Sequence record: PV730302.1
Direction: 5' to 3' (one strand)
Length of the DNA stretch: 64,000 nucleotides
From: a phage
The stretch's first letter is position 1; the number at the start of each line of letters is the position of its first letter. The translations under genes were made by a program, and so were the position numbers. A model generated the notes under the pieces. That model saw nothing but the letters and a program-made list of their open reading frames with translations. It was not told the origin of the DNA and did not search any database. This document shows positions 2,883 through 17,856 of the stretch, piece by piece.

Positions 2883-3162
2883 CTTCCACCTTCATTAGTT
2901 TTACATAACGCTCTCCGATGGCACGACCTTCAATTGAGCACGCTTCTATAGTCCGACAACTTGACATCTTCCAAGAAGCCGTAACATAGGCCCAATAGTC
3001 TTCAGAGGCCTTTACGCTGGGTCTACTCATTTGTGCATAAACAGGCATCGCACTACTAGCAAATGCATCCATCAATTTATCGTTGGTGTTATTTGCTAGT
3101 GAAACTGTAGGGCTTAAACATCCCGCCATAAGGATACAAGCCGCTGTACGGAAAATATCCAT
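2869..3162 (-). CDS. hypothetical protein, possible signal peptide or lipoprotein
   Basis: ORF track 97 aa; N-terminal hydrophobic stretch ending ...LMAGC. Confidence 0.4.
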   Translation of the reverse strand: MDIFRTAACILMAGCLSPTVSLANNTNDKLMDAFASSAMPVYAQMSRPSVKASEDYWAYVTASWKMSSCRTIEACSIEGRAIGERYVKLMKVEDEVQ

Positions 3163-3254
3163 ACAAAAGTCCTTTGTTGTTTTATACTATTTGCCTTTCG
3201 GCCTTAACCGATAGCGATTACCAAAAGCTAAAGCTCTACGGTTAGTATTATTAT

Positions 3255-3533
3255 TTATAGCTTTTTAAGCTTACGACAATAAGAATAGAACACGTCGTTA
3301 AAATTATGCTCAACCCAATTCCTCTGTATAGGCGAGGTAATGGAAAGCATATAATGAGCTTTAATTAAATCCATCCCATTTTTATTAGGACATTCTTTAT
3401 TATTAGCATTATACGTCGCTGCTACAACCTCTATCTCTCTTTTGTAAGCCACATCATCCATGATAGGCGAAAGAACAATATAAGAAATAGCCACAGCGAA
3501 CGCTAGAATTAAAATCTTTGAATTTAGGTCCAT
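3255..3533 (-). CDS. small membrane or secreted protein
   Basis: ORF track 92 aa; N-terminal hydrophobic helix. Confidence 0.45.
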   Translation of the reverse strand: MDLNSKILILAFAVAISYIVLSPIMDDVAYKREIEVVAATYNANNKECPNKNGMDLIKAHYMLSITSPIQRNWVEHNFNDVFYSYCRKLKKL

Positions 3534-3540
3534 AGTACCC

Positions 3541-4113
3541 TCAACTCGTTATTTCTATCCAGTGCTTCCTGCACAATGACACGTAAGAATCGTTGCCACC
3601 TATAGAAACTTGGGCTCCGTCCTTAATTGCAATACCATCTTGGATACGAGCCGTCATAGTAGCTTTACGGCCGCAATGGCACACACCTTTGTACTCAACG
3701 AGTTTATCTGCTGTAGCGAGTAATTCAGCAGAGCCAGGAAACAGTTTACCCTGAAAATCAGTTCTTAGCCCATAGCACATAACTGGAACATTATAATTGT
3801 CTACTATCTTTGCCAGTTGTTTTATCTGTGCAGGTTCTAAGAACTGTGCTTCATCCACAAATACACAGTGGATATCTTTTTGAGATTCAGCCCAACGATA
3901 GAACTCGTATAGGTCCATATCCGGAGTCACGGCATTAGCCTCTTGACTAATCCCTATACGAGACGAAATGCTATGGCTTGATTCTCTATTGTCTATCGCA
4001 GGCTTTAAAAGGAGTACGCCCATACCGCGTTCTTTGTAGTTATGAGCCGCTGTTAGCAATGAAGCGGTCTTCCCAGAATTCATCGCCGCATAGTGAAAAT
4101 AAAGTTGAGCCAT
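3541..4113 (-). CDS. tk: thymidine kinase
   Basis: 190 aa; P-loop MNSGKTASLL, C-terminal Cys cluster CHCGRKA...LCRKH; size matches T4 Tk. Confidence 0.9.
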   Translation of the reverse strand: MAQLYFHYAAMNSGKTASLLTAAHNYKERGMGVLLLKPAIDNRESSHSISSRIGISQEANAVTPDMDLYEFYRWAESQKDIHCVFVDEAQFLEPAQIKQLAKIVDNYNVPVMCYGLRTDFQGKLFPGSAELLATADKLVEYKGVCHCGRKATMTARIQDGIAIKDGAQVSIGGNDSYVSLCRKHWIEITS

Positions 4114-4122
4114 ATTACCTTC

Positions 4123-4329
4123 TTAAAGACTATTTACATAAGCAATTAATTCATTTTCTTTCTCATCAAATCGATTAGCAAATTCTTCCAGATGGTCGGC
4201 ATCTATAGGGCCATATTCATCATAAAAAGAATTTGCTTCTGCATGCTCATCTAGAAGTTCATGGATAAGCTCAAACAATTTATCTTTCTGCTCTTTACTC
4301 AGACTCATAACCATTGTACCTTTAAGCAA
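4123..4329 (-). CDS. hypothetical small acidic protein
   Basis: ORF track 68 aa. Confidence 0.35.
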   Translation of the reverse strand: MLKGTMVMSLSKEQKDKLFELIHELLDEHAEANSFYDEYGPIDADHLEEFANRFDEKENELIAYVNSL

Positions 4330-4517
4330 TATTCTTCAACATGCTGTTTGCGTTTATTTTTATCTATAAAAGTATATTCAACATATTCACCAATATACCA
4401 TTTATCGGTGTTATGTTGACTTTTTATAGGGCATTTAGTTACTCGGGTTTCGGACCAGTGTCGAATAATTTCCGCTTTATTTTTAGGGTCAAACGGATGC
4501 GGGTAATGGGCTTTCAT
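4305..4517 (-). CDS. hypothetical protein
   Basis: ORF track 70 aa. Confidence 0.4.
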   Translation of the reverse strand: MKAHYPHPFDPKNKAEIIRHWSETRVTKCPIKSQHNTDKWYIGEYVEYTFIDKNKRKQHVEEYCLKVQWL

Positions 4518-4956
4518 AATCTACCACCACTAAATTAATATCAGGAGTAAACAAATTAATCAATTGATAAACCTTGTCCCAATCACCACCAGCAATACCA
4601 CAACCGATGCGAGGGATATAAATTCTTGGTTTAAACAAAAGACCCTTTGCGGTACGGTTTAATTCTATCATACAGTTTACTAAAGCACCGTAATCAAGAT
4701 TAGGGCCCGGTTCGTATTGGGTGTATAAATTATAGCAAATTTGGCCCTTATTACCTGTGGCTTGAGTAAACGTGCCAAGTTTTTCCAAATGGCCTAAATA
4801 AGTGGTTTTATCGATAGCGAGAATAGGCGGATAAGCCTTAGCCAATTGCCCAGCTACACCTGAACCCATTGTATGGAAACAGTTACACCCGTGAGCAACA
4901 TTATTACCTTGAAGAAACAGGGCGACGATATCGCCCTTAATATAATCAATAATCAT
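4489..4956 (-). CDS. macro-domain-like protein (putative ADP-ribose binding or hydrolase)
   Basis: 155 aa; N-terminal GDI...GNNVAHGCNC...GSGVAGQL resembles the macro-domain GDI/NAAN/GGGV motifs (pattern recognition, not computed). Confidence 0.5.
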   Translation of the reverse strand: MIIDYIKGDIVALFLQGNNVAHGCNCFHTMGSGVAGQLAKAYPPILAIDKTTYLGHLEKLGTFTQATGNKGQICYNLYTQYEPGPNLDYGALVNCMIELNRTAKGLLFKPRIYIPRIGCGIAGGDWDKVYQLINLFTPDINLVVVDYESPLPASV

Positions 4957-12742: not shown

Positions 12743-13702
12743 TTATTTTTCGAAAGGACGAATTAAATGTTGGTTATCTTGGAAACGCTTGATGTAGTCG
12801 TTTTCACCTAAAGTCTTGTACATATTAACCACCGCTTGGTAGTTTTCCCAGGCGTACTCGCGGAACCAACCTGAAGTGATTGAGGTGCACACTTTCTCAA
12901 GAGCCATATAGAAACTTAATGATGGCGAAATATTAAAGTCATTAGGAACCTGTGAACGTTCTAGTGCCAGGACACAAGTTTCTTCATACACACCGGCCAA
13001 TTTAATAGCTTCAGGCAAAGCTTCAAACTTCTCACGAGAGGTCATGACTTCAGAACCATCCTTCATATAAAAGGTATATGCAGGGCGGCCTGCCAATGCT
13101 ACTGCTTCGTGGATGGAGTCATGGTCCAGCGTATAAATGGTATCATTAAAGAATGATGATTTGTTAACGTCTAATTTAGGGTGAGAATAGCTCAACGTTT
13201 CTTTTTGACGTTGCAGCATAATTTCCTGGAGTTCTTCGTTCAGGGTCACGCCTTTATTACGAAGGTATTTGATGTGGGACATAGTTTTCAAGAAGAACGG
13301 ATTATTCTTAAGGAAACGATGAGAGGTTTTGATAGCCAGACAGATATCAGGGGTTGCCCAATAGAAACCAGTAAGACGGTCCTTTTTAATATGATTTTCA
13401 GCATATTTCAGGAGACGATAGCTTGAAGTGAAATCTTCGTCTTGAAGCTCACCGGTAATTTCTCGTACGTTAGTCAGAGCACGAACGATATAAGCTTCAA
13501 AATAGGTTTCTTTACCATTATGCATACATTTGAAAGCCTGGACATCAGGATTGTCAACGTGTACATGGGCACCAAACATCCGAGCTTTAAAGTGATTCCA
13601 TGAGCCTTGGTCGGCAATGAAATCCCAATCAGAATTTTCGATATGCTTACTTTCAATCAGACCAGCGTGGTGCAGTGCACGAGAACCAATAACTAACATC
13701 AT
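12743..13702 (-). CDS. hypothetical 319-aa protein, possible nucleotidyltransferase fold
   Basis: N-terminus IGSRALHH...SDWDF loosely resembles a GS...DxD motif (spacing atypical). Confidence 0.5.
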   Translation of the reverse strand: MMLVIGSRALHHAGLIESKHIENSDWDFIADQGSWNHFKARMFGAHVHVDNPDVQAFKCMHNGKETYFEAYIVRALTNVREITGELQDEDFTSSYRLLKYAENHIKKDRLTGFYWATPDICLAIKTSHRFLKNNPFFLKTMSHIKYLRNKGVTLNEELQEIMLQRQKETLSYSHPKLDVNKSSFFNDTIYTLDHDSIHEAVALAGRPAYTFYMKDGSEVMTSREKFEALPEAIKLAGVYEETCVLALERSQVPNDFNISPSLSFYMALEKVCTSITSGWFREYAWENYQAVVNMYKTLGENDYIKRFQDNQHLIRPFEK

Positions 13703-13715
13703 AATATTTTCCTCA

Positions 13716-13883
13716 TTAGTAGAGACGAGTTACTTCATATTTACCTAGTTCAGATTTTTTTGCTTCAATACGCGTGGCGGCGAGATTAGCGGCCTCTAGT
13801 GAAGAAAATTGAACCACTTGTGAAGTATTCTGCCTTACGCCACCTTGTGGGTGAGTAACAAAAACAATAAGAACATTATACAT
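13716..13883 (-). CDS. hypothetical small protein
   Basis: internal start MYNVLIV with SD GAGGAAAA upstream. Confidence 0.35.
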   Translation of the reverse strand: MYNVLIVFVTHPQGGVRQNTSQVVQFSSLEAANLAATRIEAKKSELGKYEVTRLY

Positions 13884-13902
13884 AATATTTTCCTCAGATA
13901 AC

Positions 13903-14142
13903 TTAAATTTCGGCAACGTAAGTGTTATGCAATTCCCACATATCATCAGAATTGCTCTTAATGATAGGGATTATCTCATTAGAGATTTCTTCAGCATAAG
14001 GGTCATTGATACAGTGGGCATCTTCAAAACGAACACCGTAATCAGACTTCTTATAGGCAAAGCCATAAATCTTTTTAAACTTGGCACGGGTAATGCGTAC
14101 CGGTTCATTAGACTTATCAGACAACGGAGAGTAATACCACAT
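13903..14142 (-). CDS. hypothetical protein
   Basis: ORF track 79 aa. Confidence 0.4.
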   Translation of the reverse strand: MWYYSPLSDKSNEPVRITRAKFKKIYGFAYKKSDYGVRFEDAHCINDPYAEEISNEIIPIIKSNSDDMWELHNTYVAEI

Positions 14143-14185
14143 ATGTTCTCCTCATGTTTGTGTAGGGTAATAGTAACACGTATTT

Positions 14186-14536
14186 TTAGAGTTGTACATC
14201 ACTTCTGCAATATTCTAAAAATAATTTATCGTTGTCTACCGTATCCCAACGACGCCAAGATGGATTCCAGACCAAAGCGTTGTCACCACAATCATTGAGC
14301 TTAAAATGGTCGTAGTACATAGCTATACGTCTAGTTTCGTCACCAGAGAACCCCAGTATAGGCTCGCCGTGGGTGTGATACATATGATGGTGCATTGAGA
14401 GGTCGCATTTGTAAAACATCTCACGTTTACCACGAACGAACAAGAAGGCTTGCCCATTCATATAGAATTCTTTATCTGTTTTCAAAAGATATTTGAATAC
14501 TGAATCTTTATGCATAAGTCCTCCTACCACATCCAT
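14186..14536 (-). CDS. hypothetical protein (His-rich HHHMYHTH segment)
   Basis: ORF track 116 aa. Confidence 0.45.
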   Translation of the reverse strand: MDVVGGLMHKDSVFKYLLKTDKEFYMNGQAFLFVRGKREMFYKCDLSMHHHMYHTHGEPILGFSGDETRRIAMYYDHFKLNDCGDNALVWNPSWRRWDTVDNDKLFLEYCRSDVQL

Positions 14537-14545
14537 GTGGTTAAA

Positions 14546-14773
14546 TTATTTTCCTAACGAAACACGAGTAGGTTTTTTACCAAAATAGTCTTCGTAAGAA
14601 CCATCTAAACGGCCTGCTTTAGACCGACAATACGAATCATACTTTTTGTAATAAGTCATCTCGGTATTATAACGTGGGTGTCTATCAGCCATAATAATAC
14701 TTAACGGCCAACCTTTGGCATAATCGCGAAGACCATTTATTTTACGAATGTATCTTTTCTTTAATTTTAGCAT
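14546..14773 (-). CDS. hypothetical basic protein
   Basis: ORF track 75 aa. Confidence 0.4.
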   Translation of the reverse strand: MLKLKKRYIRKINGLRDYAKGWPLSIIMADRHPRYNTEMTYYKKYDSYCRSKAGRLDGSYEDYFGKKPTRVSLGK

Positions 14774-14991
14774 GAGCTCGGATACCAGATTTTACCATCG
14801 GCCTGAGCAACGAAGGTGCGACCAGCTTCTTCACCATAACAAGAGCTATTCAGCCAATCTTCGAGACGAACTTCACCGTCATAATCATCGAGCTCAACAC
14901 CGAAATCCTGGGCAGAAGCCATATCTTTTACTTTCTTATACAGTGCAGCCAGTTCAAGAGCAGCTTTTTCTAATTCATTAATATCAGACAT
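14767..14991 (-). CDS. C-terminal-Cys family small protein, member 4 (ends WYPSSC)
   Basis: start set at MSDINELEK; shares N-terminal helix, central aromatic/Gly motif and terminal W-x-SS-x-C with three upstream paralogs. Confidence 0.55.
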   Translation of the reverse strand: MSDINELEKAALELAALYKKVKDMASAQDFGVELDDYDGEVRLEDWLNSSCYGEEAGRTFVAQADGKIWYPSSC

Positions 14992-15001
14992 TTTTATTTC
15001 C

Positions 15002-15214
15002 TTAGCAAGACATAGAAGAAGTAAACCAGAAACCATCACCATCAGGAATGCCGTAATCATCACGGACCCATTCATAATCATCATATTCCGGGTTCTTTGG
15101 AGAAATGTATTGTCCACGACCAGAAACATGGAACTCTTCACCCGTTTCGTCAGCCACAGACTGGCCTTTACGTACTAATTCACGGATTTGGTTTTCAATT
15201 TCATCAATAGTCAT
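15002..15214 (-). CDS. C-terminal-Cys family small protein, member 3 (ends WFTSSMSC)
   Basis: ORF track 70 aa; paralog. Confidence 0.55.
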   Translation of the reverse strand: MTIDEIENQIRELVRKGQSVADETGEEFHVSGRGQYISPKNPEYDDYEWVRDDYGIPDGDGFWFTSSMSC

Positions 15215-15223
15215 TTTATTTCC

Positions 15224-15505
15224 TTAACATTCAGAAGAAGAGGACACCCAACCACCATTTTCTAGGCTGGTAGTGTAATCATGTTGGTTTACAATAGCGT
15301 ACTGAGCTTCACCGTATTCTTCCCAGTGGGCAAGGTCGGCTTTCAAGGCGCCAGGAGAATAATAGTCACCGCCCATACCGCGAGCAGGGTATATATTAAA
15401 ATGAGTCTCATATTTGTTTGCAATTTCCTCGGCACGACGAATAGCTTTATGGATATCATTTACTGCTTCAGCCAATTCTTTATTTTTATGGTAATCATTC
15501 ATCAT
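15224..15505 (-). CDS. C-terminal-Cys family small protein, member 2 (ends GWVSSSSEC)
   Basis: ORF track 93 aa; paralog. Confidence 0.55.
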   Translation of the reverse strand: MMNDYHKNKELAEAVNDIHKAIRRAEEIANKYETHFNIYPARGMGGDYYSPGALKADLAHWEEYGEAQYAIVNQHDYTTSLENGGWVSSSSEC

Positions 15506-15514
15506 AGCGTTTCC

Positions 15515-15805
15515 TTAGCACATTGCCGAAGAGGAGATCCAAGCACCAACTGTAACGACGCCATTTTCAACTTCACCACCGTTGTTTTCAATTTCATCTT
15601 TAAACCACTGGGAGCATTCATAACCGACAGGATAATATGTACGGCCTGAACCATAATCACCGGTACCGAATTGGATACCATACTTATCGGCAATAGCTTC
15701 ACATTCATGTTCGATGGTATTCACTTTATTCAGAAGAGCATAGATAGCCTTTTCTGCAGATTTCTCGTCATTGTGTTCCGGGATTTCAATTTCAATTTTA
15801 TTCAT
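15515..15805 (-). CDS. C-terminal-Cys family small protein, member 1 (ends AWISSSAMC)
   Basis: ORF track 96 aa; paralog. Confidence 0.55.
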   Translation of the reverse strand: MNKIEIEIPEHNDEKSAEKAIYALLNKVNTIEHECEAIADKYGIQFGTGDYGSGRTYYPVGYECSQWFKDEIENNGGEVENGVVTVGAWISSSAMC

Positions 15806-17350: not shown

Positions 17351-17399
17351 TTTATAATCCATGAGGACATTATACCCTGTCCTCTGAGGGTTGTAAACA
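17351..17399 (-). promoter_or_regulatory. early promoter (GTTTAC -35, TATAAT -10) with flanking inverted repeat GAGGAC/GTCCTC
   Basis: read on minus strand; upstream of ORF 16733-17326. Confidence 0.6.
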
Positions 17400-17820: not shown

Positions 17821-17856
17821 GGGCTCATAATATCTTAATCATGAGCCCGTGTAAAC
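17821..17856 (-). promoter_or_regulatory. early promoter variant with inverted repeat GGGCTCAT/ATGAGCCC
   Basis: GTTTAC at 17851-17856 (minus sense); SD GAGGAG then ATG of ORF 17403-17801. Confidence 0.5.

Follow-up and report, generated by a model that had tools for sequence, protein, structure and literature searches.

The stretch of phage DNA analysed here (sequence record PV730302.1, 64,000 nucleotides, in the following referred to as the window) carries on its minus strand an array of four small genes, paralogs A to D, whose products all end in a Trp-x-x-Ser-Ser…Cys tail, and further downstream on the same strand a gene for a predicted nucleotidyltransferase (NTase), a DUF7277+DUF7275 protein that measures 300-350 aa across phages. 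The family of these small proteins is almost never found without a nearby gene for such a MenT-toxin-like NTase, which suggests that the two probably work together. The coordinates of the features are collected in Table 1.

Table 1. Genes and other features of the small-protein array and its surroundings (positions in the window).
Feature	Position	Strand	Description
Paralog A	15515-15805	minus	96 aa, end ...GAWISSSAMC; subtype GDYGSGRTYYP…GAW[VI]SSSxMC
Paralog B	15224-15505	minus	93 aa, end ...GGWVSSSSEC; subtype YPAxGMGGxYYSPG…GGWVSSSxEC
Paralog C	15002-15214	minus	70 aa, end ...GFWFTSSMSC; subtype GExF…EYIP…YxW[VI]RD…GFW[FY]xSSMxxC
Paralog D	14767-14991	minus	74 aa, end ...KIWYPSSC; second internal motif EDWLNSSC
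Partner gene, predicted NTase	12743-13702	minus	319 aa, DUF7277+DUF7275
Four small ORFs between array and NTase gene	13716-14773	minus	75, ~109-116, 79 and ~55 aa; phrog_7065, 9796, 3723 and 20278
Best sigma-70-like promoter match, candidate early promoter	17369-17397	minus	TTTACA-17-TATAAT, 11/12 positions, upstream of the co-directional block

A preliminary description of this DNA had reported four adjacent minus-strand open reading frames (ORFs) of about 70-96 amino acids (aa), spaced by about 10 nt. Their coordinates were confirmed, with intergenic gaps of 9 nt (A-B), 9 nt (B-C) and 10 nt (C-D). In each of these gaps an AAGGAA lies 5-8 nt ahead of the ATG, and the preceding TAA stop contributes to it (TAAGGAA). 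The start of A overlaps the stop of an upstream e.3-like membrane-protein gene by 4 nt (ATGA), and D in turn shares 7 nt with the next ORF. Such gaps and overlaps are typical of a translationally coupled block. In the case of D, a longer ORF starting at an upstream GTG overlaps C and is not the gene; the real start is the ATG at 14991, with an AAGGAA ribosome-binding site of its own. The AAGGAA sites, the overlapping stop/start signals and the ratios of nonsynonymous to synonymous substitutions (dN/dS) of 0.08-0.23 argue that the four genes are real. The region is 93-98% identical to the Dhakavirus phages QL01, WG01, 04086 and Bp7 (T4-like Straboviridae). Compared with the annotated RB69 genome, the array is an insertion between the homologs of e.3 and e.2 in the early 'e.x' region, and a tRNA cluster, nudE and the lysozyme gene e are found a few kb from it.

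The linkage of the two families was followed from both sides. A first set of 80 viral loci was anchored on the large protein, and a small-protein member was counted at E < 1e-3 with a hidden Markov model (HMM). Such a member was present in 69 of the 80 loci, and 6 more contained an ORF recognised by the motif only. All 184 HMM hits lie on the strand of the NTase gene, 181 of them upstream of it, and the nearest copy is found at a median distance of 405 bp (range 12-1,622 bp). The loci carry between 1 and 6 copies of the small gene, with a single copy in 14 loci. In the window, 1,064 bp separate the end of D (14767) from the start of the NTase gene (13702), which is downstream on the same strand. 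A second set of 59 loci was anchored on the small protein and gathered with a B-type sub-alignment. Here, a DUF7275 gene was present on the same strand in 58 loci and downstream in 56 of these 58, the sole exception among the 59 being a contig that ends at the array. The pairing also holds at an NTase identity of only 37-57%, namely in Ralstonia phage RSP15 (family members at 2974-3435 and the DUF7275 protein at 3834-4730 of locus L009) and in phage contigs of more than 350 kb, and on one metagenomic contig the small gene and the NTase gene are 13 bp apart. Clustering of the neighbouring ORFs gave no third conserved gene, the best other family reaching at most 8 of the 74 non-T4-like NTase clusters. 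As there is no third conserved partner, the cassette moves as a unit.

The preliminary description had taken the four ORFs for paralogs that arose by tandem duplication, and this view was upheld by their membership in one protein family. All four match phrog_899 (E 2.8e-23 for A, 2.4e-20 for B, 1.3e-13 for C and 4.3e-10 for D) over the C-terminal ~70-89 positions of the 221-position profile. The PHROG entry, of which all four are thus members, says nothing about a function, a motif or a partner. When a profile was built with the Dhakavirus sequences left out, it picked exactly these four among the 494 ORFs of the window (E 2e-26 for B, 1e-20 for A, 1.3e-16 for C and 7e-5 for D). Pairwise identity among A, B and C is ~23-26% over nearly the full length, and D is recognisable by profile only. 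An exhaustive profile search against 1.8 billion representative proteins (E ≤ 1e-3) gave 50 clusters, all of 72-143 aa except P0062, and most of them show a helix …AE.IADE.G..F.F..AYGMGGTYY…, an acidic, Trp-rich stretch and an end of the form …G.W.SSS..C. P0062 is a 1,080-aa repeat protein with SLH-like C-terminal repeats (E 4e-7 over 45 residues), and its match looks compositional or spurious. A word-indexed homolog search returned 57 proteins, and B was found by tblastn in 284 phage records. The distant relatives carry AYGMGGTYY, and B is probably the ancestral type, since it is the form closest to the majority of the distant family members. Altogether, the four ORFs are ancient paralogs of a phage-only acidic family.

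The four proteins have in common only an N-terminal helix, a Gly/aromatic hairpin motif and the tail W-x-x-S-S-x(0-3)-Cys-COOH. These features had been noticed at the outset, and the statistics of the family show them to be real and strongly constrained. Members are acidic proteins of 65-110 aa, with a helix ending in A-[DEN]-x-x-G-x-x-F and a C-terminal G-x-W-x-x-S-S-x(0-3)-C, and the four proteins of the array were assigned to the family on these features. The shared C-terminus does not result from chance: W..SS.{0,3}C$ is matched by only these four of the 494 window ORFs, all four are also found by profile, and Cys-terminated ORFs of any kind number 15 of 494. Among 281 unique family members, the third residue after the Trp (W+3) is Ser in 264 of 265 and the fourth (W+4) is Ser in 240, and the terminal Cys follows the Trp at a distance of 7 residues in 205 members, of 5 in 47 and of 8 in 11. 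The last residue is Cys in 179 of the 184 HMM hits, compared with 5.8% of background ORFs. The Ser codons vary among the copies (TCC, TCT, TCG, AGC, TCA), and the constraint on the tail therefore acts at the protein level. Conservation of the shared 3' end as DNA or RNA, e.g. as a ribosome-binding site or a coupling signal, was considered and rejected, because the codons differ and the motif outlives nucleotide divergence across phages. The proposal that the preserved tail reflects a functional requirement thus stands, as the constraint points to a chemical or recognition role of the tail.

Copies of the W-x-x-S unit are also found inside the proteins. In the 281 members, 80 internal copies were counted, compared with 15.1 ± 3.9 in shuffled sequences, which is a five-fold enrichment. 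Examples are DWLNSSC of type D and WESSSEGWESSSEGWVSSSSQC of P0096. In type D this second motif is conserved (EDWLNSSCYGEE; DW[LNM]xSSCYGE in the orthologs), and in some distant members (P0096, P0068, P0100 and RSP15, L009 3211-3435) the unit is repeated 2-3 times before the terminal one. The W-x-x-S-S unit behaves as a duplicable module.

The small proteins are strongly acidic, with a median pI of 4.4 (4.2-5.0) and a net charge of -8. An AlphaFold 2 model of B (pLDDT 65) places a helix at residues 9-31 and a second helix after some short strands; the last strand lies at the Trp, and the tail is of low confidence. In Pfam the four proteins had no match above threshold (FYRN, BrxC/D, TPR, COX5A and KH all at E ≥ 0.04), and PADLOC gave no match for them. 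They have neither a HEPN match in Pfam nor the R-x4-6-H motif expected of the partner protein in HEPN-MNT (type VII) toxin-antitoxin systems. A profile search against the PDB sequences yielded no more than a weak and local similarity of G-x-T-Y-Y…W to the WW domains of PRPF40A (E 0.04), probably a convergent hairpin. Some orthologs of the small proteins and of the NTase (e.g. L002 = MK295203) are named 'tail completion protein', 'major capsid protein', 'prohead assembly scaffold protein' or 'DNA helicase' in GenBank. These capsid, tail and helicase names are clearly propagated annotation errors, and all remaining database names of both families are 'hypothetical'.

The earlier suggestion that the array is of a diversifying kind did not hold. 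Five old orthologous subtypes (A-E) are kept across Dhakavirus, Gaprivervirus, Mosigvirus, Moonvirus, Marfavirus, Kanagawavirus and relatives, and the orthologs in Mosigvirus (RB69), Moonvirus (Merlin), Marfavirus, Kanagawavirus, Serratia phage 4S and others show ~55-60% identity. Within Dhakavirus and Gaprivervirus, dN/dS was 0.17 for A, 0.23 for B, 0.11 for C, 0.08 for D and 0.08 for E. Both the subtypes and these values contradict diversification, and the paralogs are under purifying selection. The fifth copy, E (65 aa, MSRELDC…SWVSSSYEC), lies between B and C in 10 of 12 close relatives and is missing from the window and from QL01 (B/C junction at 15215-15223; compare L001 9716-9931). The missing unit of 207 bp lies between the 3' ends of B and E, which are nearly identical (TGGGTGTCCTC…GAATG[TC]TAAGG). 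Copies are therefore probably gained and lost via recombination between the conserved tails. In RB69 (L003 5673-5982) the type-A paralog is split into ORF138c and ORF139c, the former ending in GAWVSSPALC, and it is intact in another Mosigvirus (L023); the split is either a frameshift or pseudogene or a sequencing error.

In the case of the NTase, the N-terminus is of the Pol-beta type (DUF7277), with strand 1, G6-S7, a helix, strand 2 with D25-x-D27 and E69 on a later strand. Across 32 diverse homologs D25, D27 and E69 are invariant, and G6 and S7 are at least 90% conserved. The helical half, DUF7275, is extremely conserved (K125, S127, H128, H174, H194, D195, H198, E240, E241, …KVCTSITSGWFREYAWENY), and it holds an invariant Cys, C272 in KVCTS, together with four invariant His. 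The structure model of the NTase is confident and shows the bi-lobed MenT-type NTase fold with Pol-beta motifs I and II. Fold comparison gave values of 10.1 for MenT1, 8.7 for ANT(2''), 8.6 for TglT/MenT3, 7.8 for MenT4, 7.6-7.7 for other small NTases and 7.3 for LnuA, and Foldseek was in agreement. Because its structural matches are MenT, ANT and Lnu, the partner is placed among the NTases of the clade that adds nucleotides to hydroxyl groups (the tRNA 3'-OH in the case of MenT, hydroxyls of antibiotics in the case of ANT and Lnu), and with its catalytic residues intact it looks active.

Pfam reports only DUF7275 and DUF7277 for the 319-aa protein, with neither AbiEii/DUF1814 nor RlaP (PF10127) matched; PDB sequence searches found no MenT, and PADLOC gave no match for the NTase family. 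Residues ~118-150 gave a marginal match (E 0.03) to the HEPN-like KEN domain of RNase L, in which the invariant R148 is aligned with the catalytic Arg. A HEPN or HD nature of DUF7275 was rejected, as this marginal match is the only one and the catalytic His is absent. About 2,800 NTase homologs occur in metagenomic and phage data, spread over T4-like and Ackermannviridae-like phages and phage contigs of more than 350 kb. Cellular genomes practically lack the NTase: only 6 loci were found in 185,579 species genomes, all on contigs of metagenome-assembled genomes (MAGs).

Regarding the surroundings of the cassette, the families of the four ORFs between array and NTase gene are confined to T4-like loci (12 of 86 loci for the family of the 79-aa ORF, which alone among the four is listed), and they are lineage-specific fillers outside the conserved module. 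Between the 75-aa and the 116-aa ORF, at 14526-14541, lies a perfect 16-nt palindrome (ACCACATCCATGTGGT), which is probably not a terminator because it lacks a T-run on the coding strand. In addition to the candidate early promoter of Table 1, a second sigma-70-like site was found at 17827-17855, and in total the region has no more sigma-70-like matches than shuffled sequence. The T4-type late promoter TATAAATA is absent between 10486 and 25372, and none lies within ~4 kb on the coding strand. In the whole window this late promoter core occurs 19 times (7.3 expected); 15 of the 19 sites are at or past 25 kb, where the long plus-strand ORFs lie, and the array has none near it. Altogether, an early timing and role of the array is weakly indicated.

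In other phages the cassette is located among genes for replication, nucleotide metabolism, RNA repair and NAD salvage. Genes found immediately downstream of the NTase in unrelated phages (L128/L009 RSP15, L137, L077 and others) include those for 3 RNA ligases, 2 DNA ligases and 3 calcineurin-like phosphoesterases, and further 1 RlaP, 2 NAMPT, 2 NUDIX and 2 HD_4 among 136 neighbours. RNA-ligase, RlaP, NAMPT, NUDIX and HD_4-type genes are typical of conflict islands (PMC7824862), and the neighbourhood has a loose flavour of RNA repair and NAD conflict. Of 60 distant loci, only 10 have tRNA genes within ±5-6 kb, so that a link to tRNA drawn from the neighbourhood is suggestive at most.

We infer that the small proteins are physical partners of the NTase, and we tentatively favour the reading that their Ser-Ser…Cys tail is an acceptor, or a pseudo-substrate, of the enzyme. 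The MenT/AbiEii-like Pol-beta NTase and the small acidic family would then form a self-contained two-family cassette of many large lytic phages. In the small protein, the N-terminal amphipathic helix would be packed on a small beta-sheet, with the invariant Trp anchoring the last strand and the Ser-Ser…Cys-COOH tail protruding from it; the tail is probably flexible, given its low pLDDT in the model of B. This tail might enter the NTase active site, where a Ser hydroxyl would accept a nucleotidyl (or phosphoryl) group, and the thiol and carboxylate of the terminal Cys might help to dock the tail or bind a metal. One NTase would serve 1-6 paralogous substrates, whose variable acidic and aromatic middles may direct each of them to a different downstream target in the infected cell, early in infection.

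Several observations lead to this reading. The invariant residues are nucleophiles and not a typical binding surface. As the W-x-x-S unit recurs inside many members, a site motif fits better than a structural core. A single NTase gene follows 1-6 tandem small genes, which is what one enzyme with many substrates would look like. Finally, enzymes of the clade act on hydroxyls, including those of protein Ser: MenT3 and AbiEii-type enzymes are reported to auto-phosphorylate a protein Ser (PMC11375011; bioRxiv 10.64898/2026.01.19.700257). In a wider sense, the cassette could be a phage-specific protein-modification system, in which the NTase attaches a nucleotide or nucleotide-derived group to the tails of up to six carriers or effectors, and the modified tails act on host targets early in infection, for takeover or counter-defence. 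We regard this extension as possible but doubtful. The anti-defence or host-takeover role considered earlier is possible, given the early-gene-like setting, the acidity of the proteins and the RNA-repair and NAD-salvage genes beside the cassette in other large phages.

A number of points weigh against the tail as an acceptor. The spacing between Ser-Ser and the terminal Cys varies by 0-3 residues, which is awkward if both are required at exact positions of one active site. Known Pol-beta-fold protein nucleotidyltransferases such as GlnE, GlnD, MntA and DrrA target Tyr rather than Ser. Between ~5 and 11 of the 80 NTase-anchored loci lack a recognisable small partner. The array and the NTase gene of T4-like phages are set apart by four unrelated small ORFs, and Merlin has an annotated terminator after its array, so that array and NTase are not always co-transcribed. 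The model of the small protein, moreover, is of low confidence.

The small proteins may instead be antitoxin-like inhibitors or regulators, whose helix or tail fills the cleft of a potentially toxic tRNA-modifying NTase without any covalent modification, as in the case of MenA1 and MenT1. MenT1 is the best structural match of the NTase, and MenA1 (68 aa) blocks MenT1, its long N-terminal helix alone being sufficient (PMC10435456). The small genes run in the direction of the NTase gene and nearly always precede it, and very acidic proteins (pI ~4.4, charge ~-8) would suit a nucleic-acid-binding cleft. However, the invariant positions are in the C-terminal tail and not in the helix, and a search of the PDB with the family profile did not bring up MenA1. 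One inhibitor would suffice, whereas up to six non-redundant paralogs have long been kept under purifying selection, and small genes and NTase gene are often separated by 0.3-1.6 kb that contain unrelated ORFs. Unlike a cellular toxin-antitoxin or defence module, the NTase is nearly absent from bacterial genomes and absent from PADLOC. Taken together, we consider inhibition rather unlikely, while it remains the strongest competitor to the acceptor reading.

With a lower probability, the small proteins could be independent early effectors, i.e. acidic nucleic-acid mimics or decoys directed against host defence or other host proteins, with the NTase being a syntenic neighbour that serves for example in RNA-end repair. 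Their small, acidic and aromatic-rich make-up resembles that of known DNA-mimic anti-defence proteins, and they are encoded in an early-type, promoter-proximal and hyperplastic region between e.3 and e.2. The RNA ligases, RlaP, NAMPT, NUDIX and HD_4 genes near the cassette in other phages would fit as well. Yet synteny alone cannot explain a same-strand co-occurrence in 58 of 59 and in ~75 of 80 loci, across phages that share no other neighbour, and the selection is purifying and not diversifying. This makes independence of the two families unlikely.

An assembly by metal or redox chemistry of the tails is more improbable still. Here, the terminal Cys of several chains would bind a metal or cluster, form disulfides or pair with C272 of the NTase. 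A thiol beside a free carboxylate is a good chelator, and this idea would account for a Cys at the very last position of nearly all hits, for the several paralogs per genome and for the invariant Cys and four invariant His of DUF7275. The small proteins have no second conserved metal ligand, however, and many phages have a single copy; the invariant Ser-Ser and Trp would be left unexplained, and the cytoplasm is reducing. Least probable by far are precursors of ribosomally synthesised and post-translationally modified peptides (RiPPs; a leader helix and a Ser/Cys core forming a lanthionine or AviCys-type ring) or T4-type internal head proteins: most copies do have the Ser…Cys C-terminus with S-x-x-C(end) that resembles AviCys-forming cores, tandem multi-precursor arrays are typical of RiPP loci and the N-terminal I/L-x-E triplets resemble T4 prohead protease cleavage sites, but no dehydratase, cyclase, YcaO, radical-SAM enzyme or flavoprotein decarboxylase is conserved nearby (74-86 loci), the conserved tail and variable remainder are the inverse of RiPP precursor families, proteins of 65-110 aa with predicted folded parts fit poorly, and an internal head protein is opposed by the lack of a nearby late promoter, of conserved N-termini between the paralogs and of a capsid-targeting sequence.

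The link between the two families turns orphan 'hypothetical' and DUF genes into one concrete enzyme-partner system, whose NTase shares a structural clade with the MenT/AbiEii toxins used by bacteria in abortive infection. Should the tail prove to be the site of a modification, the protein chemistry would be new to phage-host conflict. A modification system as outlined above would bring a post-translational chemistry and a class of phage effectors that are both new, and these would occur widely in T4-like and jumbo phages. With the small proteins as inhibitors, the cassette would instead be the first MenAT-like pair that is carried by phages and has several antitoxins. Either outcome would inform the study of tRNA-directed toxins and of phage counter-defence, and would help to annotate the hyperplastic early regions of therapeutic T4-like phages. 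Our literature search found no paper on phrog_899, RB69ORF137c, DUF7275, DUF7277, PF23940 or PF23942, or on their pairing.

Among known systems, the cassette comes close to MenAT1 of M. tuberculosis and to the MenT/AbiEii (DUF1814) enzymes in general, as the Pol-beta catalytic motifs are kept. It also resembles MenAT1 in the co-directional gene for a small, helix-first protein, here almost always upstream. By sequence, though, the NTase is not a member of DUF1814/AbiEii in Pfam, and the family profile of the small proteins finds neither MenA1 nor AbiEi at E ≤ 10 in the PDB (including 8an5 and 6y8q). Moreover, there are 1-6 partners here and one in MenAT, the invariant part here is the C-terminal W-x-x-S-S…C tail, and the module is phage-borne and virtually absent from bacterial genomes. 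With MenT3/TglT and AbiEii, which belong to the same structural clade, the cassette would share a partner-controlled phosphoryl transfer to a protein Ser; in those systems the modified Ser is reported to be in the enzyme and the partner is a kinase-like COG5340 protein, whereas here the Ser-Ser is on the small partner. ANT(2'')-Ia (AadB) and LnuA differ in that they act on antibiotics, without a partner protein and without a helical domain of the DUF7275 type.

An NTase-type enzyme that modifies one residue of a small partner is found in CitX/CitD and MdcG/MdcC (holo-ACP synthases acting on Ser), in GlnD/PII and in MntA/HepT. In the ACP cases a small acidic protein carries a thiol-bearing arm, and in GlnD and MntA the acceptor is a Tyr. 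To our knowledge, none of the CitD, MdcC, PII or HepT-type partners has a C-terminal Cys motif or a tandem array of paralogs, and by Pfam there is no sequence or profile similarity to any of these four systems. RlaP is likewise a phage-encoded Pol-beta NTase of conflict and RNA-repair neighbourhoods (PMC7824862), and a few DUF7275 loci adjoin RNA ligase, metallophosphoesterase or RlaP genes. PF10127 is not matched here, however, and ligases are sporadic (3 RNA and 2 DNA ligases in the 136 neighbours), in contrast to the near-universal Cys-tailed proteins. Because it departs from MenAT1, AbiE and the other systems in several of their defining features, we regard the cassette not as a member of any of them but as a variant of the general scheme of an NTase with a small partner protein.

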